Counted from the stretch's first letter, positions 37,925-55,970 are shown. The stretch is DNA of 61,596 nt from Nanobdellota archaeon (GCA_038045445.1 JBBSYC010000003.1:1-61596), one strand, 5' to 3'. A program made the numbers and translations. The notes: generated by a model from the sequence alone, not told the origin.

Positions 37925-37961
37925 AGCAAAGAGTTTTAACTTCTAAAAATCTTATGTTTAC

Positions 37962-39339: not shown

Positions 39340-39376
39340 AGCAAACGCTTAAAATACCATTTTTAATTATGTTATC

Positions 39377-40552: not shown

Positions 40553-40776
40553 TCATTAAAGTAAAAGTAAAGCCAAACGCATCAAATAATAAGATAGAAA
40601 AACTATCTGAAAATAATTATTATATATCTACAACAGAAAAAGCAGAATCAGGAAAAGCCAACACCTCAATAATTAAACTGTTATCAAAAGAGTTTAATAC
40701 AAATTACAAAAACATCAAAATAAAAAATCCAACAAGTAGAAACAAGATAATAAGCATCAAAAATATCAACCTTTAA
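40549..40776 (+). CDS. DUF167 (YggU-like) protein
   Basis: 75 aa showing the VKVKPNASNNKI...SGKANTSIIKLLSKEF pattern of DUF167. Overlaps the previous stop by 4 nt. Confidence 0.6.
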   Translation: MIIKVKVKPNASNNKIEKLSENNYYISTTEKAESGKANTSIIKLLSKEFNTNYKNIKIKNPTSRNKIISIKNINL

Positions 40777-40800
40777 ATAAGAATTAACCAAATTAATAAA

Positions 40801-41178
40801 ATGAGGTATGATTACGCTCCAGACTTGAAAGCAAGACTTGCAGAAATAGTCAAAACGCTTGAAATGAGCCATATAGACTTGAACAGAGTAGAATGTCTTA
40901 GAAGCTTTGGCTCAAGCACCAAAAGAACAATTGCAAGATGCCATACAATAGGCAAAGTAATGCAAAAAGGAATGAAAACTCCTGCATTCTACACAATAGA
41001 ATTTTTAGAAAAATTTAACAAATTAAACAAAACAGAACAAGACAAGGTCATAATCCACGAACTTTTGCACATACCCAAAACTTTTGGTGGTGGCTTTAGG
41101 CAACACGATTTCGTTTGTGAAGAAAATATTGACAAACTTTATAAGAATCTTAACTCTTTAAATAAGTTTTTCATTTAA
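40801..41178 (+). CDS. predicted zinc metallopeptidase (HExxH)
   Basis: 125 aa with HELLH followed by IPKTFGGGFRQHD. It resembles the small archaeal predicted-metallopeptidase family. Confidence 0.55.
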   Translation: MRYDYAPDLKARLAEIVKTLEMSHIDLNRVECLRSFGSSTKRTIARCHTIGKVMQKGMKTPAFYTIEFLEKFNKLNKTEQDKVIIHELLHIPKTFGGGFRQHDFVCEENIDKLYKNLNSLNKFFI

Positions 41179-41294
41179 TTTAATGTAAGAGAACCAATTA
41201 AACACAACTGGAAATCCTTATAAACAAACAATCACTTAAAAAAGCATAAATTTAGTGTCTCTTTTTTGTAAGAGAACTAAGTTTATATTAAAAA

Positions 41295-44200
41295 GTGGTG
41301 CACAAAAAATATACTTACAAGGATGGAAAACGTTTCGGACCCTATTATTACGAAACAAAAAGAATAAATGGAAAGGTAGTAACAACATACTTAGGTCCAG
41401 AACACAAAAATAATTTTTTCTCTGAATATAAGGCTCTTTTAATAATCTATATTTTATCTTTTACCATAGCCCTTTCCTCAGTTCCTATGAGCTTTACAGG
41501 CTACGCCTCTTTAGACATAAAGGCACAATATAATTTAGGAGAACAAATAGAAGGGGAGATTAACTTGAATATCTTAGAAGGAGAACTCATCCCCGCAGAT
41601 TCATTAATAACTATTACTTACGAAAACATCTCAAAGGAAATAATCCTCTCGGATATTGTAGAAGAATCTCCTGTGAATGGGTCATTTTACGCAAAAGATA
41701 TAGTGTTGTCTGGAGAAGGTATTGGATACGGCCTGATAGGTAAAATAAAAGAACACCCTTACGTAGATTTTAAAGTAAGTATTTTAGATAAAAAAGAAAC
41801 TAATGATAATAAGATTACATCTGAAGAACCAAACATTAACTCTGAAGAAAATGGAATCCCAGAAGAACCTGAAACCATTGAAGAAACAAACGAAGAAAAT
41901 AATGAGACAAACACAGAAAATAAAGAAGAAACAAACAATCAAGAAGAATCAAATCTTCAAAATGAAGAGGAAACAGTAATCAATGAAGCAAACACAGAAA
42001 GTGAAGAACAAAACGAACAAGCTGAAGAACAAACAACAATAACTGGGTCTTCTATTTCAGAACAATATATTTCAGGAAAAACTTCAAAAGATGAACCATT
42101 TAAATACATAATAAATGAAGATGAAACTGCAGAAATAGTGCCAGATAGTGTTTACTATAACAGTAAGCAATTAAGCGATGATGAAATAAAATTAAAAATA
42201 AACAACAACGAGATAACTGTCTCAACAAATTATTATATTGAAAACGAGGGATATGGTGAAAAGTATCTTGGCAAAAATGACAAAAGATTATCAATAGATA
42301 TTTCGAAATTGGAGCTAATAGCAACAGAAAGTTCAGAAATTTCTGTAACAATAATGTATAAAAACGAAAAAATATTGGAAGCGCACAAAGACATAGAGGT
42401 AATTAAACCTAAAAATGAAAGCATAGAAGAAAAAACTCCAGAAATTGAGTTGAATATCTCTCAAATAAACGAATCTGAAATAGAAAACATAACTAAAATA
42501 AACCAAAGCATAGGAAATCTAACTGAAAACAATATAACTCTGCAGAATATAACCAATTTTACAGAAATAGCGATAAATGAAACGACCGTAAATGTAACTC
42601 AATTTACTGCAGTAATAGGGCAACCAGTTCGTTGGATAAAAACCATAGCAATAGACTTGAATGAAAGTGTAAATCTTGTAGTCGAAATCCCTATAGAAGC
42701 TGAAAATATAACTCTTGATAAAATAGACTTGAATGAATACGCGGAAATAAAAGGCATATCAATAGAAGATTTAGAAATAACAGAATCAGAAATTCCAACA
42801 GAACAACCCCAAGTTGAAAACATCACTGCAAGGATAACTGGAAGCGCTTCTGCAAATATTGACCTTAACAATGATTTATTATATAAAATATTAAGATTTC
42901 TAAGGTTAACTGGAAAAGTTATAGATGAAAACCAAAAAGAGAAAGTCCAAGAAGTTTCAATAGAGCTAAATAAAACAGACTTCGGAGTCGAAGTAGAATA
43001 TTACACCGAAGCGCCTCAAGCAACAGAAGAAATTTCAAGCTCAACAAGTAAAAAAGTTCTTGTATCCAGTCCAGAAAACTTACACTATGAAAATGTCCTT
43101 ATATTTACAAACATTTCAGATAATCTAAGATTAACAGACCAATCAAATATCATTATAGAATGGATAGAAAACAACTCAAGGTTAGAGATATTTTCAATAA
43201 ATGACTCAAACAATGATGGAAACTACGACTATGTCCAATGGATTGCACCTCACTTAAGCAACCAATCATTTAACATAATAGTCATAATAAACGCACAGCA
43301 TCTCAATCAAACAAGAGAATTCATATCAAACATTTATAATGAAACAAAAGAATTAGATAATATTTGGAGCGAAACAATTCCAAACGGACATTATGTAAGA
43401 GTCACCTTTGAAAGAAATCTTACTTCTGAGAAAGATATCACTGTTTATCCAAGAGCCTCAAATGGAACAAATATCTCTGAAGTTTCAATAAAAATATATG
43501 TAAAGAATTCAAATGAAACAATAGCAGAGTTCAGCAATCTGGCAGAGAACTCCTATAATAAAGTTCTGCTCACAAACCTAAACCAATCGCAAGATACATT
43601 CGATTTAGAAATTGTTAATGGTAATTTAGAATTTGACCATATAATAGACCCAAATCAAGGTCCAGATGTATTCAATTTAACATCTCCAATTAATGGCTCT
43701 TCTACGACAATAAGAAGCGTAAACATATCTATGTTCATAAATGATACTGATGGAGCTGTTGCAGGCAGTTCGGGAAACAACTCTCTGTTCTATATAGATA
43801 CTTCAACCACATTTACAAATGAACACTTAGTTTATGTCGATGATGAATTCAGCTTCCCAAGAGATTCTTATTTTAATTATAGCATACCCCCTCTAAAATA
43901 TGATCCAACTGGAATGATTATTTTGTATCACTTCGACAATAACTCCCATTATAATGAAAATAAAACAAGAGTAACAGACTTTGCAACGGGCAAGTTTAAC
44001 GGCACAGTGACAAGTGCAGAAGGAGAGAGACAAAAAAGCATTACTGGCGTAGGTAGAGCCTTAAGAACAAATTTCAGCCAAATAATTACTATTCCTGACG
44101 ACCCTCTGTTGAATTCCCCCTTTTACACTGGACAGATTACTATAGCATTTTGGTTTAATTTAACCACTAACGAAACAATAAATAACTTCCCAGCAGTACT

Positions 44201-47200
44201 TGAAAAAGTAAGTGGAAATTCTACAAACAGAGATTATAGAATAGAATTTCTGAATACTACTTTCAAAAAACTATCATTTAACACGGCAAATGGAACTGCA
44301 TCAGAATCAATAACCACAGGAAAATCTTTTGCAAATTCAACATGGTACCATTACGCAGTAACTTACACTAATGTAACTGGAAACATGAGCACATATGTTA
44401 ATGGTATTCCCGATAGTTCGAGAACAGCCACGGCAAAGAACCTTCTAATGGATTCGAACGCAGACCTTCGAATAGGAAGATCTAGCGGGGCGAATTCATT
44501 TGTTCCAGGATTATTTGATGACATAGTAATCTACAATAGAACCCTTAACTCTTCTGAAGTATTAGATATGTATAGATTAAGAGAGGGAACTTACTATCTA
44601 AGAGTAAACTCTACAGACTCTCTTGGAGCTTCAAACAGCAGTCCGATATATACATTTTCAGTAGACTTGACAAATCCAGGCCTTACTTTAAACGACTCCT
44701 CAAACGCTTCCAGTTTCTCTTCCGCAACTTCAGTTTCATTCAATTGGACTGCAATTGATTATATTGACACATCTCTTAATTGCAATCTGACAATAGACAA
44801 CGCAGTAAACAAATCAAACATAGCCTCTGCAAATAATACTATGATTAATGTAAGTGTCAGTGGATTTTCAGTAACAGACCATTATTGGAATGTTACTTGT
44901 TTAGATGACGCAGGAAATAAAAATATCAGCCAGACGAGAACTTTCACTATAACAGAAAGTTCAGATACTCAAAATCCAAATGTCTCATTCGTTAATCCAA
45001 CACCCTCAAGCGGAAGTATTCAAACTGGAAATTCTATCTTTGTGAATGTATCGACTTCAGATTCAAACAATGTAAGTACATTTATTGATTTTGGTAATTC
45101 AATTATTGGATTATGGAGAATGGATGAATATAACTCTACAAGTGTGCATGATTATCTTGGAAAAATAAATGGAACAATAAATGGAAATGCTCAAGTAAAT
45201 ACTAGTGGAAACTTCAATAGTTCATTTTCATTTGATGGAAATGGAGATTTCATAAATCTTGGAGACCCCCTTTCAGGAGGAAGTTCTAAACTAAATGTTT
45301 TAAATAATTTTACAATAGTTGTATGGATAAAACCTTTCACATTAGGAGGCACCGTATTGAGCAGAGAAGATTCAAACGTAGTCCAAAACTTCCAGTACAC
45401 ATTTGGAATAAATGACAGTGGCAATATTTTTGCAGGTTCAAGTTCAATTCAAACATCCTCCTTGCAAGTTTCAGCAAACACCTGGAGTCAAATAGCCATT
45501 ACAGTTAACGGGACTAATTCAAGAGTATATAAAAATGGAATAAACAGTTCCATATTTACTTTCACATCAAATAACCTTGATGGAGGTAATGTAGTAATAG
45601 GAGATGCGGGAGAATTATCAGATGATTACTTCAATGGTAGCATTGACAATATAATTTTCTTCAACAGAACCCTTTCTTTGACTGAAATAGAAGCATTGTA
45701 TGATAATGCTTCAAGTAAATACGCCCAAATAAATTATACTAATCTTGCATCTGGAAACCATTTATTCAAAGCCTATTCTCAAGATTTAAGCGGAAACATA
45801 AATTCTACTGAACTGAGAAGCGTTACTGTGGATACTATTTTGCCCGTGATTAACTTCACATCACCTACCCCTGCTAATGGAAGTAGTCTATCCGTAAATT
45901 CTATGGTTGTTAATGTTTCTGCAAGTGACTTGAATAATGTTAGTTCATTTATTGATATGGATAATTCCCTTGTTTCGTGGTGGAGAATGGATGATTTGAA
46001 TAGTTCTGGTGGTGTTGTAGATTATACTGGAATAAATAATGGAACTGCTACAGGGGGTGCTGTGCAGAATAATTCGGGGAAATTAGGAAAAAGTTTTAGT
46101 TTTGATGGAAGTAGCGGGTATATTGACACAGTAGATTTAAATTGGGATTGCACCACAATATCTTTACCTAATTTCACTGGAGCCATGTGGATATATCCGG
46201 AAAGTTTGTCTTCAAGTCCAGAGATGTTTGATGGTGTTCAAAATACTTATTTTTTAATGGGCTCATTAACTACTACAGATATAGTTTTTAGTTCTTATAA
46301 TGGTTCGTCAGATTTCTTGTGTTCAAAAACTCATGGGATATCTTTAAATCAATGGCATTTAGTTGTGTGGAGCAATAATGGAACGGCTATAAATTTGTAT
46401 GTAAATGGAACTTCTGTTGGTTCTTGTTCAAATCTTGGATGGGGTTCTGTGGCTGGTCTTTGTAAAACAATAAATATTGGGGCAGATGGTGATCGTGGAG
46501 AGAATTTCTTTGATGGCTCAATTGATGATGCAATGATATTTAATAGAAGTTTAAGTGTTGAAGAGATTAATGCTCTTTACGCCAACACCTCTTCGAAATA
46601 TTACTCAAATAACTTTACTTCACTTACTGAAGGCAATCATAATTTCAAAGCATATGCCCAAGATATTGCAGGAAATGTGAACTTTACCGAACTTAGAACT
46701 GTAAATATAAATACAAATCCAACCCCCTACAACGGAACAGCACTAATACTAAATTCCACATTAGGTCTTAACAGAACATTAGAAAATTTAAACGTCAGAA
46801 CAACTCTCCTAGACCAAAATAATAACAGTATGAATGTAACAGTCAGATGGTATAATAATAGCATTCAACATTTAGTATTTGAATACAACTCAAGCTATTC
46901 AAATGGAACAACATTCATAGCAACATTAGGACATCAAAACACCACAAAAGGTCAGAATTGGTCTGTTGGATTAACAATAAACGATGGATTTAGTAGTTTA
47001 TCTGTAAATTCAAGCAACCTAACAATACTTAATTCATTACCAAACGCAACACAAACTTCACCATTAAATGGCTCAATAACTCTAAATCGTTCAACCCAAA
47101 TTTTCACATGGGTGATGAGCGATGATGATGGAGATTCCATTCTTACAAACAGAATAAATATAAGTTTAGTAGCCTCCTCAACTTGCACAGATTCAAGTTT

Positions 47201-47831
47201 TGATGGCACAGATATTTACGAACCAGAAGAATTGGGCAGTTTCTCAATGAGCACAATGTTTCTAACATTTAGATGTTTAAGTGATAACAATGACTACTAT
47301 AAATGGAGCGTAGCAGCTTCGGAAGATGGAACTAATTATGGGTCGTATTCAGCACCATTCAACCTAAGCGTGCAAGCATACCTAAACACAATAATGAATA
47401 TAAGTTCCATAGAGTTTGGAAATCTAAACTATCTAGCAACAAATGACACGGTAGATAATTCTCCAAACCCTCTAATCATAATAAATCAAGGTAATTCTCT
47501 TATAAATATTTTCATGGAAGCAACAAATCTGTGGAGAAGTGTAACCAATCCTTCAACATACTATCAAGCAAAAGTGGCAAATGTCACCACAAATGGCATT
47601 TCAGAAAATGGCTCATTCTCATGGGCAAGCTCTCAAACAAGCTATACTAATGTTCTATTAACAACAAACATATCTTCAGATTCTCCTCTGATAACTAATC
47701 TAAACTACTCCGATTCCACAGACAGCGCAGAAGTAGACGTAAATGTCACAGTTCCATCTGGAGAAGAACCTGGAGCAAGAAGCTCCACAATAACTTTTAC
47801 TATAGTCTTGGGCAGTGGGGACACCTATTGA
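41295..47831 (+). CDS. giant N-anchored surface protein (2178 aa) with three LamG (Laminin_G_3-type) lectin-like domains
   Basis: GTG start. The cytoplasmic N-terminal hairpin motif is KDGKRFGPYYYETKRINGKVVTTYLG, followed by one TM helix. An acidic E/N/T tract spans ~41.80-42.04 kb. Three LamG modules end in LFDDIVIYNRTLNSSEVLDMY, FNGSIDNIIFFNRTLSLTEIEALY and FDGSIDDAMIFNRSLSVEEINALY. NxS/T sequons are very dense. Confidence 0.85.
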   Translation: MVHKKYTYKDGKRFGPYYYETKRINGKVVTTYLGPEHKNNFFSEYKALLIIYILSFTIALSSVPMSFTGYASLDIKAQYNLGEQIEGEINLNILEGELIPADSLITITYENISKEIILSDIVEESPVNGSFYAKDIVLSGEGIGYGLIGKIKEHPYVDFKVSILDKKETNDNKITSEEPNINSEENGIPEEPETIEETNEENNETNTENKEETNNQEESNLQNEEETVINEANTESEEQNEQAEEQTTITGSSISEQYISGKTSKDEPFKYIINEDETAEIVPDSVYYNSKQLSDDEIKLKINNNEITVSTNYYIENEGYGEKYLGKNDKRLSIDISKLELIATESSEISVTIMYKNEKILEAHKDIEVIKPKNESIEEKTPEIELNISQINESEIENITKINQSIGNLTENNITLQNITNFTEIAINETTVNVTQFTAVIGQPVRWIKTIAIDLNESVNLVVEIPIEAENITLDKIDLNEYAEIKGISIEDLEITESEIPTEQPQVENITARITGSASANIDLNNDLLYKILRFLRLTGKVIDENQKEKVQEVSIELNKTDFGVEVEYYTEAPQATEEISSSTSKKVLVSSPENLHYENVLIFTNISDNLRLTDQSNIIIEWIENNSRLEIFSINDSNNDGNYDYVQWIAPHLSNQSFNIIVIINAQHLNQTREFISNIYNETKELDNIWSETIPNGHYVRVTFERNLTSEKDITVYPRASNGTNISEVSIKIYVKNSNETIAEFSNLAENSYNKVLLTNLNQSQDTFDLEIVNGNLEFDHIIDPNQGPDVFNLTSPINGSSTTIRSVNISMFINDTDGAVAGSSGNNSLFYIDTSTTFTNEHLVYVDDEFSFPRDSYFNYSIPPLKYDPTGMIILYHFDNNSHYNENKTRVTDFATGKFNGTVTSAEGERQKSITGVGRALRTNFSQIITIPDDPLLNSPFYTGQITIAFWFNLTTNETINNFPAVLEKVSGNSTNRDYRIEFLNTTFKKLSFNTANGTASESITTGKSFANSTWYHYAVTYTNVTGNMSTYVNGIPDSSRTATAKNLLMDSNADLRIGRSSGANSFVPGLFDDIVIYNRTLNSSEVLDMYRLREGTYYLRVNSTDSLGASNSSPIYTFSVDLTNPGLTLNDSSNASSFSSATSVSFNWTAIDYIDTSLNCNLTIDNAVNKSNIASANNTMINVSVSGFSVTDHYWNVTCLDDAGNKNISQTRTFTITESSDTQNPNVSFVNPTPSSGSIQTGNSIFVNVSTSDSNNVSTFIDFGNSIIGLWRMDEYNSTSVHDYLGKINGTINGNAQVNTSGNFNSSFSFDGNGDFINLGDPLSGGSSKLNVLNNFTIVVWIKPFTLGGTVLSREDSNVVQNFQYTFGINDSGNIFAGSSSIQTSSLQVSANTWSQIAITVNGTNSRVYKNGINSSIFTFTSNNLDGGNVVIGDAGELSDDYFNGSIDNIIFFNRTLSLTEIEALYDNASSKYAQINYTNLASGNHLFKAYSQDLSGNINSTELRSVTVDTILPVINFTSPTPANGSSLSVNSMVVNVSASDLNNVSSFIDMDNSLVSWWRMDDLNSSGGVVDYTGINNGTATGGAVQNNSGKLGKSFSFDGSSGYIDTVDLNWDCTTISLPNFTGAMWIYPESLSSSPEMFDGVQNTYFLMGSLTTTDIVFSSYNGSSDFLCSKTHGISLNQWHLVVWSNNGTAINLYVNGTSVGSCSNLGWGSVAGLCKTINIGADGDRGENFFDGSIDDAMIFNRSLSVEEINALYANTSSKYYSNNFTSLTEGNHNFKAYAQDIAGNVNFTELRTVNINTNPTPYNGTALILNSTLGLNRTLENLNVRTTLLDQNNNSMNVTVRWYNNSIQHLVFEYNSSYSNGTTFIATLGHQNTTKGQNWSVGLTINDGFSSLSVNSSNLTILNSLPNATQTSPLNGSITLNRSTQIFTWVMSDDDGDSILTNRINISLVASSTCTDSSFDGTDIYEPEELGSFSMSTMFLTFRCLSDNNDYYKWSVAASEDGTNYGSYSAPFNLSVQAYLNTIMNISSIEFGNLNYLATNDTVDNSPNPLIIINQGNSLINIFMEATNLWRSVTNPSTYYQAKVANVTTNGISENGSFSWASSQTSYTNVLLTTNISSDSPLITNLNYSDSTDSAEVDVNVTVPSGEEPGARSSTITFTIVLGSGDTY

Positions 47832-47840
47832 TGGAGAAAC

Positions 47841-48284
47841 ATGATTAACAAAAAAAACATACTAATAATAGATTCTATTTTGGTACTTGGAATCTTGATA
47901 TCTGCATTTCTTCTAATTGGATACAGTCAGCCATTAGCAATAGGACCTTTATATGAAGAACCAAAAAATTCATTAATTTTTTCAATACAAACAACAGATT
48001 ATATAATTTTAGATAGCAATTTAAATTTCGATTCTCCCCATACTATATTTATAGATGATAAATTAACTTTAGAACCGGGAACATATTATATAAAAACATT
48101 TTCTGAACTGTCAAGTGAAATCAGAGAGATAAAATCGGAAATAGTTTTGGAGTTACAAATTAGAAGAATAAATGATGGTCTAATTGGGCTATTTAATATA
48201 GGAAGCTCTCCAGTCCAAGTAGAAACCTACAATGTGGGTTCTCTGATTAACTCTTCTTTAATAAATAACGAGGGGAAAAAATGA
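47841..48284 (+). CDS. small N-anchored protein (147 aa), cluster member
   Basis: One N-terminal hydrophobic helix, then a beta-rich-looking domain. It starts 9 nt after the giant gene stop. Confidence 0.6.
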   Translation: MINKKNILIIDSILVLGILISAFLLIGYSQPLAIGPLYEEPKNSLIFSIQTTDYIILDSNLNFDSPHTIFIDDKLTLEPGTYYIKTFSELSSEIREIKSEIVLELQIRRINDGLIGLFNIGSSPVQVETYNVGSLINSSLINNEGKK

Positions 48285-49471
48285 TAAATTTGAAATTAGG
48301 ATTCATTATAATAATCATTGCAATAATACCCCTAACATCCAGTTTTGGAATTACTCCTGCACAACAGATTATAGAATACGAGCCTGAAACTGAACAAAAA
48401 TTCTCTTTTAGCATAATTAATTCAGAAAATAAAAAGATTAATCTAGTTTTGCTTCCACAAGGAGAACTCAACAGAAGCATTGCATTATCAAATTATTCTA
48501 TATCTCTTACTCCAGAAATTTCAAGTATTACAATAGAATATTCTGTAAAAATTCCCAAAGGACTATCTCCAGGAAAACACAATGCAGAAATACTGATTCT
48601 AGAAATACCTGAAGCCCCTTCATCTGAACTAACATACATAGGGTCGATAGTAGGAATAATTACAAAAACGGTAATAGAAGTTCCTTACCCTGGAAAATAT
48701 GCTGAATCTGGATTTGGTATAGAATCTAGTGAAGAAGGAAAAGTAAATTTTGTAATTCCACTAGTAAGTAAAGGAAACCTTGATATAGCCCGTGCAAAAG
48801 CAGTAATAGATATATTTACCCCATTGAATGAAAAAATAGTTTCAATAACCACTCAAGAAATATCTTTAGCAAGTGGCGAACGTAAAGAACTCGCGGCTCA
48901 ACTAGAAGCCTCCCAAATAACTCCGGGAAAATACCTTGCTGTAGCAACAATCCTGTACGACGAATCCACTCTAATCTTAGAAAGAGAATTCTCAATAGGA
49001 AATGACGGAATAAGTATAAAAAATATAGAAGTAAACGATTTCAGTTTAGGAGAAATAGCAAAATTTGAGTTTCTTTTAGAAAACAATCAAAACTTTCAAG
49101 TAGAAGATGCATATATCTTAATGCAAGTCCTAAATAATGAAGGAGATATAATGGCCGAGTTCAAATCCGCCACATATAATTTACCTCCATTTGGAAGCGA
49201 ACTTCTAGTGGCATTTTGGGATACAGAAGGAGTTAAAACAGGTACATATGATGCAAAAGCATTCATTAACTTCGGACAGAGCTCTATTCAAAAAGAACTG
49301 ACTCTAGATATCTCCAACAATGATATCACTGTAGTGGGAGTAGGTTATGTAATAAAATCTGGAAGTTCTAATGGAAGCCTAACCACCATTTTAATCATTG
49401 CAATAGCAGTTCTTGTCATACTCAATCTAACTTGGTTCCTCATATTAAGAAAAAAAGTCAAAAACAAATAG
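48281..49471 (+). CDS. bitopic beta-sandwich surface protein (396 aa), paralogue of 50402-51505
   Basis: Signal-like N-terminus and C-terminal TM plus basic tail (ILRKKVKNK). It shares motifs with its paralogue: GI(T/S)PA, PG(K/Q)H, VPYPGxYxE, (T/K)PGxYLA. Confidence 0.7.
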   Translation: MINLKLGFIIIIIAIIPLTSSFGITPAQQIIEYEPETEQKFSFSIINSENKKINLVLLPQGELNRSIALSNYSISLTPEISSITIEYSVKIPKGLSPGKHNAEILILEIPEAPSSELTYIGSIVGIITKTVIEVPYPGKYAESGFGIESSEEGKVNFVIPLVSKGNLDIARAKAVIDIFTPLNEKIVSITTQEISLASGERKELAAQLEASQITPGKYLAVATILYDESTLILEREFSIGNDGISIKNIEVNDFSLGEIAKFEFLLENNQNFQVEDAYILMQVLNNEGDIMAEFKSATYNLPPFGSELLVAFWDTEGVKTGTYDAKAFINFGQSSIQKELTLDISNNDITVVGVGYVIKSGSSNGSLTTILIIAIAVLVILNLTWFLILRKKVKNK

Positions 49472-49530
49472 CCCTAAAAAAAGCAAAATGTTTAAATATC
49501 AAATTTATTTAGTAACAATGAGTTGATGTC

Positions 49531-49734
49531 ATGGCCAAGCTACAAAAAGTCGTTGTTGTTTTACTTATTCTTACAATAGTTCTTTCTGCTATGTCTGTAG
49601 TTTTTAATCTAATAATCTACAAAATGAGCTCGGATAATAGCAAATATCTAAAACAAACAGCTTCGTCAAACTTTGGAAATGTGGGCCTCGTTGTTGAAAG
49701 TTCAAACACACAAAAGGGAGATTCAAATGGTTAG
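49531..49734 (+). CDS. small N-anchored protein (67 aa) with post-TM GLxVES motif
   Basis: N-terminal TM helix, then ASSNFGNVGLVVESS. It overlaps the next gene by 8 nt. Confidence 0.5.
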   Translation: MAKLQKVVVVLLILTIVLSAMSVVFNLIIYKMSSDNSKYLKQTASSNFGNVGLVVESSNTQKGDSNG

Positions 49735-50362
49735 CTCTAAAGTAGTAGGAGCATTAGCAGTAATAGCAGTAATAACTTCAATTTTTTCAATAGGTCTTGT
49801 ATACTTATCAAGTAGAAATTTATTTAGTGTAATTTCAGGTTATGCCACAAGCACAGGAGAAGCAAATCTCACTGTAGAATCTGTCGTAGCAATTAACTTT
49901 ACAACAAGAGCAATAAACTGGGGTTCTGGAAGAGTTAACTCTGGAGCATCATCCGCAGGACTTAACACCTATGAAACAAACAACGTCACTAATGGAAACT
50001 GGACACTTCAGAACGCTGGAGGTCTTAGAATAGAGAACATAGGTAATCTCAATGTAAGTCTTAATCTCAGTGGAACAAAAACAGCCACACAGATGATTGG
50101 AGGCACAAGCCCTTCATACAGTTGGAATATAAGCAGTTTTGAGACTGGAAGTTGTCGTAATTCAACGGGTGGAACCTCTTTTCTTCCTCTTGACAACTTC
50201 TATAACATAAACACCTCAACAACTGAATTTTGCCGTTTCTTCCAATTTAACAACAGCCAAGATGTAATTAGAATAGACTTCAACTTGACAATACCCTCAG
50301 ACTCTTTAACTGGAGCATTAGGAGACACAATAACTGCCACGGCATTTGCAGCGCCTTACTGA
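49727..50362 (+). CDS. N-anchored or secreted beta-rich protein (211 aa) with post-TM NLTVES motif
   Basis: Start at ATG 49727 (MVSSKVVGALAVIAV), preceded by GGGAG. Motif ATSTGEANLTVESV. Asn/Thr/Ser/Gly-rich with many sequons and no C-terminal TM. Confidence 0.65.
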   Translation: MVSSKVVGALAVIAVITSIFSIGLVYLSSRNLFSVISGYATSTGEANLTVESVVAINFTTRAINWGSGRVNSGASSAGLNTYETNNVTNGNWTLQNAGGLRIENIGNLNVSLNLSGTKTATQMIGGTSPSYSWNISSFETGSCRNSTGGTSFLPLDNFYNINTSTTEFCRFFQFNNSQDVIRIDFNLTIPSDSLTGALGDTITATAFAAPY

Positions 50363-50401
50363 TTCAAAAAGATATTTAAAACAAGGTAGCCAAAGCAAAG
50401 T

Positions 50402-51505
50402 ATGACATTAAAAAAGTTATTCATAACTATCTTCTCAATACTTTTATTATATAATGTAAGTGCTCTGGGAATTTCTCCCGCAATAAAAGATATTAGTTTT
50501 ATTCCAGGAGAAACTGTAAATATAACATTCAATGTTCTGGATGCATCAGAAGACTCAACATATGATATTTCAATCAGAGGGGGCAGTCTAACAAAATACT
50601 CAGTTCTAAGTGCTCAAAGCATAAAAGGACAAGGAACATTTATTTTAACAATCAAATTTCCAAATTCTCTTGAAGAACCTGGACAACACACAGTAAGCGT
50701 TAGCATAAAAGAAAGACCTTCAGAAGAGTCATTCATAAACACAGTTGTAGAAGTAGGCTCCGTTATTAGAACTTTTGTTCCATATCCGGGGATATATGGA
50801 GAATTATCTCTGAATATTCCAGATGGAAATATAGATGATAAAATCCCAGTAGAACTTAAAGTAATAAACAGAGGAGATAAAATTTTAGAGCTAGATGAAA
50901 TCCACATAGATTTTATATCTGCAGAGGAGACTATTTCAAAAACATTAAATTTCACACCGGTCGATATTCAAGTAAACGGAGAGAGATATTTTAGAAAATA
51001 TCTTGATACTCAAGGCATTAAACCTGGAAACTATCTCGCAAGAGCCAGAGTATTATATTCCGAAATAGAAAGAGAGATAAACAAATCCATGCGCATAGGT
51101 TCTCCATTTGTGAATATAACTAATCATAGCAAGATAGCTCAAAAAGGGGGCATACAAAAGTTTTATATTTCTCTTGAAAGCCTATGGAACACTCCAATAT
51201 CTGCAATTTATGTGGACGTAAATATTTCAAATAACTTGGAAAGCTATTCATTCAGAACACAATCAACAGACCTTAATCCATGGGAGAAAAAAACAATTGA
51301 AAGTTATTTTGATACAGAAAGATTACAAGGCAACTATAACCTAACTCTAAACGCAAGTTATGTTGGAAAATCAACAACAATTGAAGGAAATATATTAATA
51401 GAAGATAAAAACATGACTCTTTATATAATTGCAGGATTAGCTCTATTACTTATAATCATAATCATCACTGGAATAATATTAAAAAATAGAAAGAGAAAAA
51501 AATGA
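50402..51505 (+). CDS. bitopic beta-sandwich surface protein (367 aa), paralogue of 48281-49471
   Basis: Signal-like N-terminus, C-terminal TM plus basic tail (LKNRKRKK), and the shared motifs listed for the paralogue. Confidence 0.7.
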   Translation: MTLKKLFITIFSILLLYNVSALGISPAIKDISFIPGETVNITFNVLDASEDSTYDISIRGGSLTKYSVLSAQSIKGQGTFILTIKFPNSLEEPGQHTVSVSIKERPSEESFINTVVEVGSVIRTFVPYPGIYGELSLNIPDGNIDDKIPVELKVINRGDKILELDEIHIDFISAEETISKTLNFTPVDIQVNGERYFRKYLDTQGIKPGNYLARARVLYSEIEREINKSMRIGSPFVNITNHSKIAQKGGIQKFYISLESLWNTPISAIYVDVNISNNLESYSFRTQSTDLNPWEKKTIESYFDTERLQGNYNLTLNASYVGKSTTIEGNILIEDKNMTLYIIAGLALLLIIIIITGIILKNRKRKK

Positions 51506-51906
51506 GAATATTACTTTTAGCCCTTTTTATTTCAATTATGGTTCTTTTAATGTCTGCATCGATGTTTTTTTATTATACGACTCCATTAAGTGAATCAACA
51601 TATCTAACAAGCGGTAAAATAACTGAAAACACTGGGGGTTTTGATATAAACACCTCTGCAATAACATTTGGAAGTATAACAATAGGGGGAAGTTCAACAA
51701 GATCTATATGGATAAACAACTCATACCCATTTGCAATAAAAGTCAAACCAGTTGTGAAAGGCTCCATATCTGAAAAGGTAAAATACGATTCAATAATCAT
51801 AAAACCTTACGAAGCAAGTTCATTCAAACTAACATTTTTCGCAAATAATAGTTCTTCTCTTGGGTATTACAATGGAGAAATATCTATACTTTTACTTCGC
51901 GCATAA
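51502..51906 (+). CDS. small N-anchored single beta-sandwich protein (134 aa)
   Basis: N-terminal TM, then ITFGSITIGGSSTRSIWINNSYPFAIKV, an Ig/PapD-like-looking strand pattern. Overlaps the previous stop by 4 nt. Confidence 0.6.
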   Translation: MRILLLALFISIMVLLMSASMFFYYTTPLSESTYLTSGKITENTGGFDINTSAITFGSITIGGSSTRSIWINNSYPFAIKVKPVVKGSISEKVKYDSIIIKPYEASSFKLTFFANNSSSLGYYNGEISILLLRA

Positions 51907-51937
51907 ACTATTTAAGATACCTTAATCAAGTAACTAA

Positions 51938-52999
51938 ATGACTAAAAAAAACTTTGGAATGATAGTCTTATTTATATTTGCGATAACAATTTCAATATCA
52001 AGTCTGTATTTTTCAATATGGATTTATGTAAATGATTTCGGTTCAAAAATAGCCGCACATTCATCTTCAGAAGCGAGTATAGGCTTGAGTGTAGAAACCT
52101 CTGGAGCAACTTGTGGAGATGACCTTTGTAATGGGGTAGAAACATGTTCTATATGTCCGGGAGATTGTGGAACATGTCCTTCCGGAAGCAGTTCAGGTTC
52201 TGGAGGCGGAGGTGGAGGAGGTAGTGGAACATATACTACTCCAAAATTTAAGATAAGTCAAGATAACTTCAATATAAAATTAACTTCTGGAGAAAGCGAA
52301 ACTAATGAAATAATAATAGAAAATATTGGAGAAGGGCAATTAGATATAAAAGTATCGGTAACGGGAATAGAAAACATTATTGTGCTAAATTCAAATTCTA
52401 TATATCTTTTCAAAGGGGAAAGCGCCCCCCTAAGATTTACAATAAATGCTCCAGAACCAGGAGTATATGCTGGAAAAATTATATTAACTCACCAAGGAGT
52501 GAGTAAAGAAGTCCTTATCTTGCTAAATGTAGTGAGTGAGGGAGTTCTGTTTGATACTATAGTAACGGTACCAGACTTATATAGAGTCCTCCGTGAAGGG
52601 CAAAGATTACCTGTACTAATAGAACTAATTGAAATAGGTGGAGAAACTGGTGTAGATGTTACAATGAATTATATAATAAAAGATTTTGAAGGTAATACTC
52701 ATTACACTGAATCAGAAACATTTTATGTGAAAGGAGCAAAAAGTTATAGCAAAAGATTCTCTACTCAAGGCATTAAACCTGGAGACTATGTTCTCGGAGT
52801 AGAATTAATTTACATAGGGGGATTTGCAACATCTACAGCACACTTCAAGATATCAGATTCTATAATAACTCCCCAAACATGGGTCGCAGTAGGTTCTATG
52901 ATTATTGCAATAATTGTTGCCCTATCTTCAATTATATTTTTCAAAATAAGGTCTAAAAAGCAGAATGCTCCTAAATTAAGATCAACAAATCACAAATGA
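51938..52999 (+). CDS. bitopic surface protein (353 aa) with Cys-rich CGDxxC module, Gly/Ser linker and beta-sandwich domains
   Basis: N-terminal TM, then SSEASIGLSVETSG, then CGDDLCNGVETCSICPGDCGTCP plus SGSSSGSGGGGGGGSG. Two beta-sandwich-like domains follow (GIKPGDYVLG), then a C-terminal TM. Confidence 0.7.
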   Translation: MTKKNFGMIVLFIFAITISISSLYFSIWIYVNDFGSKIAAHSSSEASIGLSVETSGATCGDDLCNGVETCSICPGDCGTCPSGSSSGSGGGGGGGSGTYTTPKFKISQDNFNIKLTSGESETNEIIIENIGEGQLDIKVSVTGIENIIVLNSNSIYLFKGESAPLRFTINAPEPGVYAGKIILTHQGVSKEVLILLNVVSEGVLFDTIVTVPDLYRVLREGQRLPVLIELIEIGGETGVDVTMNYIIKDFEGNTHYTESETFYVKGAKSYSKRFSTQGIKPGDYVLGVELIYIGGFATSTAHFKISDSIITPQTWVAVGSMIIAIIVALSSIIFFKIRSKKQNAPKLRSTNHK

Positions 53000-54027
53000 A
53001 AAAATTAGTTTTATTCCTAATAGTAGTCAACTTAGCAATAGTAAGCGCTGAAATAGAACAAACTCCATATACTCCGGAGATAATCACTGCAATTGATCCA
53101 ACAGTAATACCTGTAAGTTTCTTTAACGAAGGAAAAGAAGCCCAATATAAAGCAGTTATAAAAGAAGAATCATCTCTAGTAAAACTCGAATATTCTTCAA
53201 TAAATGTAAAAGAGAATGAATTTGGTTCATTCAACTTACTTATAGGAGAAAATAATCCTGAAGAAGGTATCTATTTCAATAGCATGTCAATATACAAGGA
53301 TGAAGAATTATTTCAAAAAATCCCTATTATAATAGCAATAGAGTCAAAAAAACCATATTATGACCTTTCAATAAAATTAGACCAATCATCAGATGTTTCA
53401 TTTATAGGAACTAGTTCTGAAGTAATAATATCTCCGACAATTACAGTATACAAGTTAAACTACAATATAAGAACCCCATCAAGCACGGCATTAAGATTTT
53501 TTGTTTATAGTTTAGAAGGAAAACTTCTTTATTCATCTGAAGAAGTAATCTCTGTATCAAGACAAAGTTCGTTTGAGATATTAGCAAATATTGGGGCAGA
53601 CTATCCAGAAGAAGTGATTGTATATGTTGAAGCCCTAAGTAACCCAAGCGGAAGCGAACAAACATTGGGTTTAGATTTATATCAGCTAAGCTTAGAAGAT
53701 AAACTTCTATTGAGTCCTCCTCTTGAAATAAATGATTATTCCTCAAAAATATATTTTGGAATATTCTTATTTCTTTTATGCTCAATCATTCTAATAAGCT
53801 ATCTATGGCATAATAAATCGGTAGAACAAGCAAAGGGTTGGAAATCAAGACTAAACGAAATAAAGAACACTAATTTTGGTGAAGCAGCTAAAAGTCTGAG
53901 AAAACTAAAAGACCAAAAAGATACACTTGAAAGAGCCTATTCAAATCACTACATTTCAAAGAACTCATTCGATACTGCTATGAAAGAAATATCAAAATTA
54001 GCAAACCAATTAAAGAAACGTTTATAA
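52996..54027 (+). CDS. bitopic surface protein (343 aa) with ~70-aa cytoplasmic coiled-coil tail
   Basis: Signal-like N-terminus, beta-rich ectodomain, TM (IYFGIFLFLLCSIILISYLW), then a Lys/Glu-rich helical tail. Overlaps the previous stop by 4 nt. Confidence 0.65.
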   Translation: MKKLVLFLIVVNLAIVSAEIEQTPYTPEIITAIDPTVIPVSFFNEGKEAQYKAVIKEESSLVKLEYSSINVKENEFGSFNLLIGENNPEEGIYFNSMSIYKDEELFQKIPIIIAIESKKPYYDLSIKLDQSSDVSFIGTSSEVIISPTITVYKLNYNIRTPSSTALRFFVYSLEGKLLYSSEEVISVSRQSSFEILANIGADYPEEVIVYVEALSNPSGSEQTLGLDLYQLSLEDKLLLSPPLEINDYSSKIYFGIFLFLLCSIILISYLWHNKSVEQAKGWKSRLNEIKNTNFGEAAKSLRKLKDQKDTLERAYSNHYISKNSFDTAMKEISKLANQLKKRL

Positions 54028-54058
54028 ATAGAATTGCTCTAAAACCCCTAGATAAAAA

Positions 54059-54349
54059 ATGGTGACAAAAGGAAAATCCGCACTCTCTGGTGCAATAAAA
54101 GATATTGAAAACGAGATAAAATCTTTAAACAAGGAAAAAGATTCTCTAAAAAAATCAATAGAAAATATTTCAGGAAACATTTCTGAAAGTCGTCAGAAAG
54201 AATTGTCACTGCAAAAATCTCTAGCAAACCTCGCAGAAAAAGAAGCAAAACTTACAGAACGTAAAAAATCTCTTGAAAGCAAATCAGACAATCTAGCAGA
54301 TAAACTAGGCAAAATGTCTAAGATAAAATCTGAAATGAAAGATATTTAG
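54059..54349 (+). CDS. small coiled-coil protein (96 aa)
   Basis: Lys/Glu/Ser/Leu-rich heptad-like sequence with no hydrophobic segment. It directly follows the surface cluster. Confidence 0.5.
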   Translation: MVTKGKSALSGAIKDIENEIKSLNKEKDSLKKSIENISGNISESRQKELSLQKSLANLAEKEAKLTERKKSLESKSDNLADKLGKMSKIKSEMKDI

Positions 54350-54356
54350 ACATTTC

Positions 54357-54725
54357 ATGAAAACATCCATATTATATAAAGGAAAAAGATTATTAATAGA
54401 AGTAAAAAAAACTAATTTTTTAACAAAGGGCTTAGGCTTAACATTTAGAACAAAAAATACTCAGAATCTTATATTCGATTTCTCAAAACCAGTAACATGG
54501 CAAGGCAACTTGACTTCTATTTTTGTATTCTTTCCATTTTTAGCATTGTGGCTCGATAATAGAAATCGTGTAATTGCTGTAAAAATAGTAAACCCTTTCA
54601 CTATATCTATATCTCTAAAAAAACCATTTTACAAGATAATAGAAGTCCCATTTAATTCAAAAAACGAGGCAATTTTAAGGAATTTTATTAAAAAAGGTCA
54701 TTTTAACAGGTATTTTCGACGATAA
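54357..54725 (+). CDS. DUF192-like protein
   Basis: 122 aa. The pattern GLGLTFR...LIFDF...FPFLALWLDNRNRVIAVKIVNPF loosely matches DUF192. Confidence 0.45.
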   Translation: MKTSILYKGKRLLIEVKKTNFLTKGLGLTFRTKNTQNLIFDFSKPVTWQGNLTSIFVFFPFLALWLDNRNRVIAVKIVNPFTISISLKKPFYKIIEVPFNSKNEAILRNFIKKGHFNRYFRR

Positions 54726-54795
54726 AATAGGTATTTTGGCATTTACCGTCGAAACATTTATATATTGGAGGCATTTTTATATTATGGAGGTGTTT

Positions 54796-54921
54796 ATGGG
54801 AAAAATTATTGCAAAGAATATCGTTAAGCGCCAACATGGTTACTTGTACTATGTAGATGCTCACGGCAACGTTTGTGAGGCTAAAATGTCTCGCGGCGGA
54901 AGAAAGAAGAAGCGCAAGTAG
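54796..54921 (+). CDS. small basic protein (41 aa)
   Basis: ATG 54796 follows a strong GGAGGTG (54786-54792). Sequence: MGKIIAKNIVKRQHGYLYYVDAHGNVCEAKMSRGGRKKKRK. The upstream part of the track ORF (from 54736) looks non-coding. Confidence 0.5.
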   Translation: MGKIIAKNIVKRQHGYLYYVDAHGNVCEAKMSRGGRKKKRK

Positions 54922-54998
54922 TTGCGTTTAAAAAAGAATTTATAATTTTTAATATTTTATTTACATAGTTTTTTAATGTCTTTTTTATTAAGAAAAAG

Positions 54999-55970
54999 AT
55001 GATAGTCGGAATAGAAACAACAGCTCACACATTCGGAGTGGGCATAGTAGACAAGGGAAAGATTCTCGCAAACGTAAAAGACATGTATAAGCCTCAAGAA
55101 GGAGGTATAATCCCAAACAAAGGCGCAGAACACCATAAATTAGTTGCAGACAAAATATGGCATGAAGCTCTTTCAAAAGCACAATGCTCTGATTCAGATA
55201 TCAAAGCAATAGCTGTCTCAAATTCTCCTGGTCTAGCCCCATGTTTGCATGCAGGCATCAATTTCGCAAAAGAAAAAGCAACAAAACTAAACATCTCATT
55301 AATTCCTGTAAATCACTGCATCGCTCATCTTGAGATAGGTCAAAGCGTTGGTGCAAAAGACCCTGTTTTGCTTTATGCTTCTGGAGCCAATACTCAAATA
55401 ATTGCATACTCTGCAAAAAAATACAGAATCTTTGGAGAAACCTTAGACTTAGGAGTAGGAAACTTCATAGACACATTCGGAAGATATGTAAATATTCCAT
55501 TTCCCGCAGGTCCTGTATTAGAAGGAAAGGCAAAAAATGGAAAATATATAGAATTACCCTATTCAATAAAGGGTATGGATGTCTCTTTTTCAGGAATGCA
55601 GACTAAATTAAAACAACTATATGACAAAGGCAATAAGATAGAAGACCTTGCATTTTCCATACAAGAAACAGCATTCGCAATGCTTGTTGAAGCAAGTGAA
55701 AGAGCTCTAGCACACACAAACAAAAGCGAGCTAGTCTTAGGCGGAGGAGTAGCATGCAACTTAAGACTTCAGGAAATGTGCAGACTAATGTGTGAATCAA
55801 GAAATGCAAAATTATTTTGTCCTGCAAAAGAATTCCTCACAGATAATGGTGCAATGATAGCATATACAGGAGAGATAATGTTCAATTCAGGAATAAAGTG
55901 CAAACCAGAAAGCATTGAAGTCTTACCGAGAGAAAGAACAGATATGATTGATGTTGTGTGGAAAAAATAA
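54999..55970 (+). CDS. kae1: tRNA N6-adenosine threonylcarbamoyltransferase Kae1
   Basis: 323 aa. It has the ASKHA fold signature IVGIETTAHTFGVGIV, metal-binding HCIAHLE, and GGGVACNLRL...DNGAMIA. No Bud32 fusion. Confidence 0.9.
   Translation: MIVGIETTAHTFGVGIVDKGKILANVKDMYKPQEGGIIPNKGAEHHKLVADKIWHEALSKAQCSDSDIKAIAVSNSPGLAPCLHAGINFAKEKATKLNISLIPVNHCIAHLEIGQSVGAKDPVLLYASGANTQIIAYSAKKYRIFGETLDLGVGNFIDTFGRYVNIPFPAGPVLEGKAKNGKYIELPYSIKGMDVSFSGMQTKLKQLYDKGNKIEDLAFSIQETAFAMLVEASERALAHTNKSELVLGGGVACNLRLQEMCRLMCESRNAKLFCPAKEFLTDNGAMIAYTGEIMFNSGIKCKPESIEVLPRERTDMIDVVWKK

Follow-up and report, generated by a model that had tools for sequence, protein, structure and literature searches.

We describe ten genes, g1 to g10, clustered at positions 41,295–54,349 of a 61,596-nt (61.6-kb) stretch of DNA from a Nanobdellota archaeon (GCA_038045445.1, JBBSYC010000003.1:1–61596; hereafter the window). 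We propose, with a probability of roughly 0.5, that the cluster specifies a Sec- and signal-peptidase-I-dependent glycoprotein fibre or stalk, held together by strand complementation and displaying the giant LamG protein g1. As part of this reading, and at the same even odds, the cluster is taken to be a vertically inherited operon of Woesearchaeota- and Pacearchaeota-type DPANN archaea. The proposal of a motor-free fibre processed by signal peptidase I (SPI) is based on a conserved strand following a predicted cleavage site, the occurrence of this strand on its own in g4 and g8, the sequon-rich and multi-copy nature of g5, a g5-type domain at the end of g1, a SipW-like enzyme encoded in related clusters, and the finding of no type IV pilus (T4P) parts in the window.

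The coordinates of the open reading frames (ORFs) and the topology of transmembrane helices and leaders were taken from an ORF table of the window and a hydropathy scan (Table 1). All ten ORFs lie on the plus strand. Where they do not overlap they are separated by 9, 59, 39, 31 and 31 nt, and starts overlap stops at four junctions (48281/48284, 49727/49734, 51502/51505 and 52996/52999), by 4 nt between g2 and g3 and by 8 nt between g4 and g5. An earlier sequence-only reading of this stretch had described ten packed, co-directional ORFs with four overlapping junctions; the ORF table bears out the packing, with a maximum gap of 59 nt, and reproduces the overlap coordinates exactly. Eleven public contigs that encode an identical g3 protein, some from Hainich groundwater and others from Logan assemblies, yielded the same ten genes with an independent gene caller. 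The co-directional run goes on 7 nt beyond g10 into a 122-aa ORF. The window (~33% GC) is archaeal in gene content, encoding EF-1alpha, Kae1, Ogg and gyrase, and the cluster shows no compositional break. A mobile or viral origin of the cluster was ruled out by the uniform GC content and the conserved flanking core genes.

Nine of the ten proteins carry an N-terminal hydrophobic segment in the hydropathy scan, as had been read, g10 being the exception. Of the four said to end in a transmembrane helix plus basic tail, g3, g6 and g8 do so; in g9 the helix (residues 248–274) is followed by a 70-residue charged tail. Pfam and NCBIfam scans of the ten proteins returned LamG on g1 alone above threshold, in three Laminin_G_3 stretches (E = 2.4e-61), consistent with the three LamG domains that had been recognised in this 2178-residue protein. 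The earlier description of eight small beta-sandwich proteins proved too coarse, since g4 consists of a transmembrane helix and one strand motif with no sandwich. Judged from profile comparisons, the cluster proteins comprise two beta-sandwich domain superfamilies, a shared leader and the leader-only g4, and hhalign comparison of orthologue alignments ties nine of the ten into one homology network. An unrestricted iterative hidden Markov model (HMM) search that merged g3, g4, g6, g7, g8 and g9 was discarded as drift, and best-family assignment combined with hhalign was used in its place.

The cluster is widely conserved. A g3-profile scan of one genome per GTDB species found relatives in 173 species genomes, which bear DPANN-type or unclassified labels except for four bins. 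There are 275 g3 homologues, and the 119 listed are 42–72% identical over nearly the full length; all named carriers among these 119 are Nano-, Pace- or Parvarchaeota metagenome-assembled genomes. From the g3 scan we examined 80 loci, with g3 identities of 32–66%, and assigned their ORFs to the best-matching family by HMM. The order g1-g2-g3-g4-g5-g6-g7-g8, in some loci extended by g9-g10, the 122-aa ORF and Kae1, is kept in most of the loci with enough flank. On an 885-kb contig (L007) whose g3 is 47% identical, it is retained from a metallopeptidase gene through g1 to g10 and on to Kae1. Gene order is thus strongly kept among relatives, and profile and structure searches assigned none of the small proteins to a characterised, unrelated function; the suggestion of a dedicated apparatus, formed by several proteins at the surface of a DPANN archaeon, is supported. 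Four contigs with g3 relatives of 35–47% identity, L035 (JAHYJW010000006.1), L048 (DAITPU010000001.1), L049 (CAYWLA010000080.1) and L075 (JAGGYQ010000027.1), are labelled Patescibacteria, 'bacterium', Methanosarcinales and Aenigmatarchaeota. The presence of these g3 relatives, accompanied on three of the contigs by further cluster genes, makes a misassignment of the contigs or of their labels probable.

Within the cluster, separable units could be recognised. g2 is present in 76 loci and has g1 and g3 as its neighbours every time; the g1-g2-g3 triad is invariant and occurs alone in L043, L050, L062, L069 and L072. In one genome (L014 and L091), g1-g2-g3 occupies one strand of a contig and g4 to g10 the other. 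Joint duplication of g4 and g5 is seen in L035, L086, L047 and L008, and L089 has a separate g4-g5 pair apart from any cluster. Several genomes have two or three g5 paralogues, including solitary extra copies; those in L093, L094, L095, L101 and L090 share a second conserved context, ~5 kb upstream of a 469–480-aa protein resembling g8 and g9. g6 follows g5 in 50 loci and g7 follows g6 in 48. At the distal end, g9 was found in 14 loci and g10 (44–74% identical) in 16, adjoining g8 in L073 and L074, where no g9 was recognised; g10 is likely a member of the system. The 122-aa ORF is syntenic in 15 loci and is replaced in L007 by an unrelated 70-aa basic protein.

It is scarcely credible that the ten genes encode unrelated secreted and membrane proteins that merely lie side by side on one strand. 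Such an arrangement would fit a plus-strand run (37175–55970) that exceeds the cluster and includes unrelated housekeeping genes, and g10 and the 122-aa ORF may not belong to the system. It does not fit an order conserved across 80 loci at the g3 identities given above, four translationally coupled junctions, a dense homology network over nine of the ten proteins, the duplication of g4 and g5 as a pair, or the invariant g1-g2-g3 triad, and as far as sequence data go it is already refuted.

In the proposed fibre, g5 would be the major subunit. It is the most conserved secreted component, at 72–76% identity where Kae1 is at 81–84%. g5 has 318 homologues, of which the 119 listed are 53–79% identical, and an exhaustive HMM search retrieved 1597 clusters at 50% identity among 1.84 billion representatives. 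In 30 members, no Pfam match was found at E up to 5 beyond scattered noise, and the g5 profile matched no PDB sequence at E up to 10. By these searches g5 is a new protein family. A FeS_assembly_P match (9 of 30 members, best E = 0.0036) was rejected as noise.

The AlphaFold2 (AF2) model of g5, with a predicted local distance difference test (pLDDT) score of 85, comprises a helix (residues 2–40), a low-confidence linker (41–55) and a nine-strand sandwich. Its most conserved stretch, residues 44–52 (N47, L48, V50, E51), lies within the block of lowest confidence (mean 56). AlphaFold likewise left the donor strand of a TLP-1 homologue disordered (PMC11494351). Querying PDB structures with Foldseek gave a list led by donor-strand-exchange subunits: TLP-1a, FimG/A/F, the Pyrodictium cannula subunit 9h8b, CsuA/B, CsuE, CupB6, CfaB and PapE. 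The match to 9h8b, at rank 6, is weak (E = 0.084, probability 0.82, TM-score 0.36/0.47), and TasA and AbpA are absent from the top 50. A conserved SG[YHF]A site follows the hydrophobic core in 30 aligned g5 sequences. We propose that the mature N-terminus is at T41 or nearby, the predicted peptide starting TSTGEANLTVES after the SPI-like site SGYA/T; mature g5 would then be about 170 aa long.

The strand that would become exposed at this site is part of a leader common to g4, g5 and g8, the three proteins for which a shared post-transmembrane motif had been noted. The leader comprises a transmembrane helix, a spacer of ~20 residues and G-x-[VIA]-x-[LVI]-x-[VI]-E, and hhalign recovers the relationship at 93.4% for g4 and g5, 91.3% for g4 and g8 and 82% for g5 and g8. 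As a consensus, [ST]G[YNR]x after the transmembrane helix is followed by a G-x-h-x-L-x-V-E strand. The full strand motif is present in 45%, 43% and 21% of g4, g5 and g8 orthologues, respectively, compared with 1% of shuffled sequences and 0–2% of g3, g6, g7 and g9. The g4 architecture is common to 55 orthologues of 58–113 residues, most shorter than 90. In g8, the strand is parted from the first immunoglobulin (Ig)-like domain by a Cys-rich and Gly-rich linker; the Cys-rich module, with six Cys in residues 59–80, is directly readable in the sequence, as had been pointed out.

The giant g1 begins with a cytoplasmic head of 44 residues (KKYTYKDGKRFGPYYYETKRINGKVVTTYLG). The head region (residues 1–45, 41295–41430) hardly varies among 15 orthologues and can be recognised in most of them; their ectodomains share just ~35% identity. 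The sole hint as to the nature of the head is a weak DUF6788 match (E = 0.043), and it may serve in targeting or in docking to g9/g10. Orthologue alignments of g1 were made for the N- and C-terminal segments only; between g1 and its L007 orthologue only the ends are conserved, with 35% identity over residues 1–786 and 43% over 1809–2175. In most of 15 full-length orthologues, the transmembrane helix is followed by TG[NRY]xSLDI, which is related to the g4/g5/g8 strand motif; g2 carries GY[AS]xPLVIAP after its own helix. At the other end of g1, the g5 HMM matches residues 2049–2170 (16.8 bits), and the C-terminal g1 profile aligns with the g5 profile at 98.7% (hhalign, E = 3.4e-16, 146 columns). 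These alignments make the terminal domain of g1 a homologue of g5. The penultimate domain aligns with g2 (94.6%, E = 6.6e-8). One relative, P0303, is a fusion in which a leader and a Cys-rich region are combined with two LamG domains and an entire g5 domain.

N-glycosylation sequons set the two proteins apart from most of the others. g1 has 115, or 5.3 per 100 aa, and g5 has 5.2 per 100 aa; g2, g3, g4, g8 and g9 have only 0–1.0, g8 having none. g1 and g5 are therefore probably the exposed, glycosylated components, and the others would be membrane-proximal.

Pfam and NCBIfam scans of the cluster and of 40 other window ORFs of at least about 100 aa brought up no Walker-A pilus ATPase, platform protein, prepilin peptidase, sortase or glycosyltransferase. 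The earlier statement that the cluster lacks pilus, sortase and glycosyltransferase machinery is thereby borne out. Its wider form, that no assembly machinery is recognisable, is not supported, given an SPI gene inside the cluster in ten related loci and a MoxR gene directly downstream in some relatives. The ten loci are L036 (at 11174–11647), L023, L030, L032–L035, L050, L053 and L058; their SPI genes encode 151–181 aa and follow g3 in five cases, g7 in four and g8 in one. Their products match TIGR02228 at E = 2e-10 to 2e-17, one copy above the curated cut-off, and the SipW model at 1e-5 to 8e-12; human SEC11A is matched as well, and the GSMxP, VHRV and GDN boxes are conserved. The 157-aa ORF in L036 has no Pfam match and was identified as SPI by NCBIfam, motifs and SEC11A alignments. 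The in-cluster SPI itself carries [ST]G[NFY]x after its own transmembrane helix, as the presumed substrates g1, g5 and g8 do.

A long variant of the cluster (L029, 15708–20851; L036, 16085–20971; L041, L057 and L079) has a g8 of ~660 aa and, in the g9 slot, an anchored protein of 1270–1355 aa. Apart from the 14 loci with g9, at least 15 have such a protein in this slot, its signal peptide being complemented by a C-terminal transmembrane helix. In the long variant, this protein is followed by a MoxR-type AAA+ ATPase (AAA_3, E = 1e-57), and the pair is inverted as a unit in L079. The statement that no ATPase is linked to the cluster is thus qualified for some relatives, although MoxR is not a pilus ATPase.

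It is very improbable that g2, g4, g5 and g7 are T4P-like pilins served by a prepilin peptidase, ATPase and platform encoded elsewhere in the genome. The 39-residue N-terminal helix and beta-sandwich of the g5 model superficially resemble the pilin lollipop, g7 has a very weak NCBIfam match to the pilin UpsB (E = 0.061), and our view is limited to 61.6 kb of the genome. A class III site is nevertheless not seen in g5, where in 30 aligned sequences K usually precedes the hydrophobic core and a conserved G, A or S never does, nor in g1, g2, g4 or g8. A 15-residue low-confidence linker separates the g5 helix from the sandwich, and no archaeal pilin or archaellin is among the top 50 Foldseek matches. 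No T4P ATPase, TadC-like platform or PibD/FlaK-like peptidase was found in the window or in the flanks of L007, L029 and L036, and the enzyme encoded in related clusters is signal peptidase I, not III. The sequence-only reading had likewise judged that this is not an archaellum or T4P locus, and the lack of class III signal peptides and of a T4P ATPase or peptidase in the 61.6 kb agrees with it.

Five of the remaining proteins share Ig-like domains. The one paralogue pair noted earlier is g3 and g6 (BLASTP E = 1e-18; hhalign 100%, E = 5e-74). g8 aligns with g9 (99.9%, E = 1.8e-32), with g3 and g6 (97.8%) and with g7 (97.8%), and g7 with g3 (95.6%), the remaining pairs among g3, g6, g7, g8 and g9 falling in an overall range of 60–98%. 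In its AF2 model (pLDDT 85), g3 consists of a signal peptide followed by three beta-sandwiches and a transmembrane helix. Its Foldseek matches are hydin/ASH (PapD-like) domains and Enterococcus faecium WxLIP (9i25_C, E = 1.5e-8, TM-score 0.25/0.36; 9i1y also at ~1e-8), and the g3 profile gave nothing meaningful among PDB sequences. The match of g3 to Pfam WxLIP_HBD (PF11797) stays below threshold (E = 6e-4; 20 bits, cut-off 28.9); of the 119 listed homologues, 17 carry a precomputed assignment to this family. The C-terminal transmembrane segment of g3 is conserved as LxxxxxxLxxxNxxWFxxxR with invariant N382, W385 and F386, and this strong conservation makes it unlike a cleaved sorting signal. 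For g6, sub-threshold matches to GG_III-CTERM (E = 0.0014) and, on its tail, to LPXTG were obtained; no sortase or archaeosortase enzyme was found in the window. g7 has sub-threshold Pfam matches to Cep192_D4, ASH and TMEM131_like_N, and g10 to many coiled-coil families and nothing more.

The Cys-rich and Gly-rich module of g8 recurs elsewhere in the window. A 1353-aa minus-strand ORF (32579–36640) without a Pfam match has a signal peptide, a C-terminal transmembrane helix with a basic tail and the same module (g8 HMM positions 68–113, E = 8e-12), followed by a DNDGDG calcium-binding-like motif. These modules mark it as a second surface protein that is large, anchored and composed of shared parts.

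The layout of g3 and g6 also raises the possibility, doubtful in our view, of a non-filamentous coat or complex in which g5 and the g5-like end of g1 would be lattice or canopy glycoproteins held non-covalently by g6 and g3, respectively. The shared strand would then, just as tentatively, be the first strand of its domain or an anchor-docking element and no polymerisation device. SlaA on SlaB in Sulfolobales and WxL proteins on WxLIP in Gram-positive Csc/WxL clusters provide precedents. Signal peptide, Ig domains and C-terminal transmembrane helix in g3 and g6 follow the WxLIP/SlaB pattern, to which the Foldseek matches and the PF11797 assignments above add. There is one g3-type partner per g5-type protein, with g1-g2-g3 and g4-g5-g6-g7 as separable modules; the conservation of g5, near that of Kae1 and in a core-genome context, is what an essential envelope component would show; in g1 and P0303 the strand is internal; and assembly machinery would likewise be unneeded. 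A strand-only g4 and a free N-terminal strand on the long Cys/Gly linker of g8 are, however, hard to fit with folding in cis. Moreover, mature g5 would be small for an S-layer protein, its top Foldseek matches are fibre subunits with no S-layer or lattice protein among them, and neither a WxL domain nor SlaA/SlaB homology was found by Pfam and NCBIfam scans of the ten proteins.

We therefore return to the strand-complemented fibre, whose assembly may proceed as follows. g1, g2, g4, g5, g7 and g8 would enter the membrane through Sec by way of their long N-terminal leaders. SPI would cut after [ST]G[YNR][AV], the housekeeping enzyme acting in this archaeon and the cluster-encoded SipW-like enzyme in some relatives, and the cut would uncover the conserved amphipathic strand h-x-L-x-V-E. 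This strand could enter the beta-sandwich of an adjoining g5-type domain by donor-strand complementation, and polymerisation of N-glycosylated g5 would, being driven by such insertion, proceed without ATP. The resulting fibre or stalk may be a long polymer or a short stalk and would be continuous with the g5-like domain of g1, the adhesin joining either through this domain or through its N-terminal strand. g8, with its strand on a flexible N-terminal tail and its transmembrane helix at the C-terminus, would be the base anchor.

The other proteins may have accessory roles in the fibre. Because g4 has nothing but a transmembrane helix and the strand, is translationally coupled to g5 and is co-duplicated with it, g4 may be a membrane-tethered strand that caps or primes g5. 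The C-terminally anchored three-Ig proteins g3 and g6 may hold or chaperone g1 and g5, respectively, in a WxLIP-like manner. g7 is possibly a minor or adaptor subunit, and g9 together with g10 could connect the assembly to a cytoplasmic coiled coil.

Several points weigh against this proposal. The Foldseek matches of g5 are weak (best E = 0.024, none below 0.001, TM-scores 0.3–0.47). The equivalent of the strand is internal in g1 and P0303, directly before the sandwich, so that it could be the first strand of a domain folding in cis. From the hydrophobic core to the proposed cleavage site, the g5 leader spans ~13 residues, which is unusually long, and with cleavage being predicted only, g5 could remain N-terminally anchored. 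g5 is also far more conserved than typical pilins, and the cluster in the window has no signal peptidase gene of its own. Finally, the roles of g2, g3, g4, g6, g7, g9 and g10 are proposed from architecture and gene pairing only, and strand exchange is itself a prediction.

The cluster had been said to match no described system. This does not hold for its logic, which is that of Sec/SPI-dependent, chaperone-free, strand-complemented fibres without an ATPase, as in TasA, archaeal bundling pili (ABP), tafi and threads. At the level of families, none of the defining ones of TasA/ABP, tafi, threads, chaperone-usher pili or WxL clusters is matched by the cluster proteins. We found no description of the locus in the searchable literature, whose coverage is incomplete.

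The closest parallel in layout is with tafi. In Haloarcula hispanica, tafi comprise a LamG tip protein (TafC), a major subunit (TafA), a transmembrane-anchored terminator (TafF) and a signal peptidase I (TafD), with proposed donor-strand assembly and no ATPase, and Sec-dependent DUF1102/TafD-like clusters exist in Thermococcales and Archaeoglobus (PMC11821415). Our locus is similarly a multi-gene cluster with small beta-sandwich subunits, in which g8 would correspond to TafF and the SPI of ten related loci to TafD. g1, like TafC, combines LamG with a domain of the type of the proposed major subunit, g5, in reversed order: the pilin-like domain is C-terminal in the g1-type adhesins, which reach 2000–3400 aa, and N-terminal in TafC. 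There is no sequence homology, DUF1102 and DUF5305 (TafG) being unmatched by the ten proteins in Pfam at E up to 0.1. The leaders here are of Sec type, with no RR motif visible in any of them by direct reading. The three-Ig anchors g3 and g6, the strand-only g4 and the coiled coils of g9 and g10 are additional to the tafi set, and TafG and TafB have no equivalents in the cluster.

TasA, AbpA, AbpB and cannulae share with our proposal an SPI-processed secreted subunit, a conserved N-terminal strand and chaperone-free polymerisation (PMC9245690, PMC9674648, PMC12518558). The tapA-sipW-tasA operon includes a dedicated SipW-type peptidase, which here is found in relatives only, and TapA and AbpB, as proposed strand suppliers, would be comparable to g4 or g8. 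The ABP operon comprises eight genes, with neither a chaperone nor an usher among them (PMC9245690), and like it our cluster encodes several N-terminally anchored beta-rich proteins. In contrast, g5 has no match to Peptidase_M73/TasA (PF12389) or to any PDB sequence, and both a giant LamG adhesin and three-Ig transmembrane anchors are missing from the TasA and ABP loci.

Saci_0406, the Sulfolobus thread protein, carries a Sec/SPI signal and an N-terminal donor strand and is heavily N-glycosylated, and no assembly machinery is known for it (PMC9715654). An invariant segment that directly follows the cleavage site, which is the donor strand in threads, together with sequon-rich g5 would match this pattern, as would a small, conserved, PibD-independent cluster with a cap-like paralogue. 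The two are unrelated in sequence, the isopeptide Asp and the YYY motif of threads being absent here, and the thread cluster of ~5 genes has no adhesin or anchors of the g1, g3 and g6 kind.

WxLIP, with the architecture DUF916-DUF3324-transmembrane helix, holds large adhesin-like and small WxL proteins of the same operon by beta-hairpin insertion (PMC10599100). g3 and g6 resemble it in having a signal peptide, tandem Ig-like domains and a C-terminal transmembrane helix; they differ in having three Ig domains instead of two, and the locus is archaeal and not from Firmicutes, with no WxL proteins (Pfam, NCBIfam) and no peptidoglycan. Chaperone-usher systems (Fim, Pap, Csu) offer a lectin-type adhesin with a C-terminal pilin-like domain (FimH), comparable to g1, as well as N-terminal subunit extensions and PapD/ASH-like Ig proteins encoded beside the subunits, and Fim, Csu and Pap dominate the g5 Foldseek list. 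Here, in contrast, there is no outer membrane, no usher or PapD Pfam match and no sequence homology, and g3 and g6 are three-domain, transmembrane-anchored proteins whereas PapD is soluble with two domains.

A bolder form of the fibre proposal, which we consider unlikely, would have a rigid, heavily glycosylated and possibly hollow g5 fibre (cannula- or TLP-1-like) with an exchangeable giant lectin tip, Ig-repeat anchors and a cytoplasmic coiled coil, physically bridging the DPANN cell and its host. It would be a hitherto unseen appendage class specific to Woesearchaeota and Pacearchaeota, with g4 as the first strand-only minimal chaperone or primer.

Table 1 Features of the ten-gene cluster and its immediate neighbours
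Feature	Position	Strand	Description
HExxH metallopeptidase	40801–41178	+	125 aa, cytoplasmic; PF18894, E = 3.3e-18; 116 nt upstream of g1
g1	41295–47831	+	2178 aa; cytoplasmic head, transmembrane helix 45–68, TGYASLDI, conserved stalk, variable LamG middle, conserved C-terminal module
g5-like domain of g1	47439–47804	+	g1 residues ~2049–2170; preceded by a g2-like domain
g2	47841–48284	+	147 aa; N-terminal transmembrane helix, GY[AS]xPLVIAP, Ig-like domain and partial g5-like N-terminal half
g3	48281–49471	+	396 aa; signal peptide, three Ig-like beta-sandwiches, C-terminal transmembrane helix, basic tail
g4	49531–49734	+	67 aa; transmembrane helix, variable linker, strand G49-NVGLVVE-S57 (nt 49675–49701), short polar tail
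g5	49727–50362	+	211 aa; leader helix 2–40, SGYA/T site (predicted), strand G44-EANLTVE-S52 (nt 49856–49882), sandwich 56–208, two invariant Cys
g6	50402–51505	+	367 aa; signal peptide, three Ig-like domains, C-terminal transmembrane helix, basic tail
g7	51502–51906	+	134 aa; N-terminal transmembrane helix and single ASH/PapD-like Ig domain
g8	51938–52999	+	353 aa; leader, strand A46-SIGLSVE-T54 (nt 52073–52099), Cys-rich module (nt 52112–52177), Gly-rich linker, two Ig-like domains, C-terminal transmembrane helix, basic tail
g9	52996–54027	+	343 aa; signal peptide, Ig-like ectodomain, transmembrane helix 248–274, 70-aa charged cytoplasmic tail, probably coiled-coil
g10	54059–54349	+	96 aa; cytoplasmic coiled-coil, no transmembrane helix
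122-aa ORF	54357–54725	+	weak Pfam DUF192 match, E = 0.044; syntenic neighbour, left unassigned to the system

The HExxH metallopeptidase next to g1 (PF18894, 'phage metallopeptidase') has a HELLH motif. As it has no transmembrane helix or signal peptide, it is placed in the cytoplasm, and it was ruled out as the leader peptidase on the same ground. Eight related loci share with the window its place immediately upstream of g1, and in L066 it is found downstream of g8 instead; this synteny hints at a linkage to the cluster beyond mere neighbourhood. Further away, a 1416-aa minus-strand ORF (8081–12331) with a signal peptide and no Pfam match is rich in G, S, Y and E, ends in GS/GY-rich repeats and has no sequon; its extreme composition accounts for a local GC of 0.435, compared with ~0.33 elsewhere. 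A 461-aa ThyX-like ORF (23506–24891) has a Thy1 domain in residues 66–244 only, and no Pfam family matches its C-terminal half.

Few uncultivated DPANN archaea are as widespread as Woesearchaeota and Pacearchaeota. To our knowledge, no attachment structure has been defined for them, and genome papers usually name 'large surface proteins' or type IV pili. The locus described here is a concrete candidate for the means by which DPANN archaea hold on to their hosts: a defined, conserved ten-gene locus with an abundant new family, g5 (~1600 clusters at 50% identity), and an explicit assembly model. In principle, strand-complemented, SPI-dependent assembly is known; new are the subunit family, the g4 and g3/g6 parts, the very large modular adhesin and the lineage. 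If correct, the model would extend the motor-free, strand-complemented archaeal fibres (ABP, threads, tafi and cannulae) to DPANN, and both the g4 peptide and the g3/g6 anchors would be accessory factors of new kinds. Very large, fast-evolving lectin adhesins would be mounted modularly on a slowly evolving scaffold, and the locus would provide targets for cryo-electron tomography, proteomics and host-range prediction.

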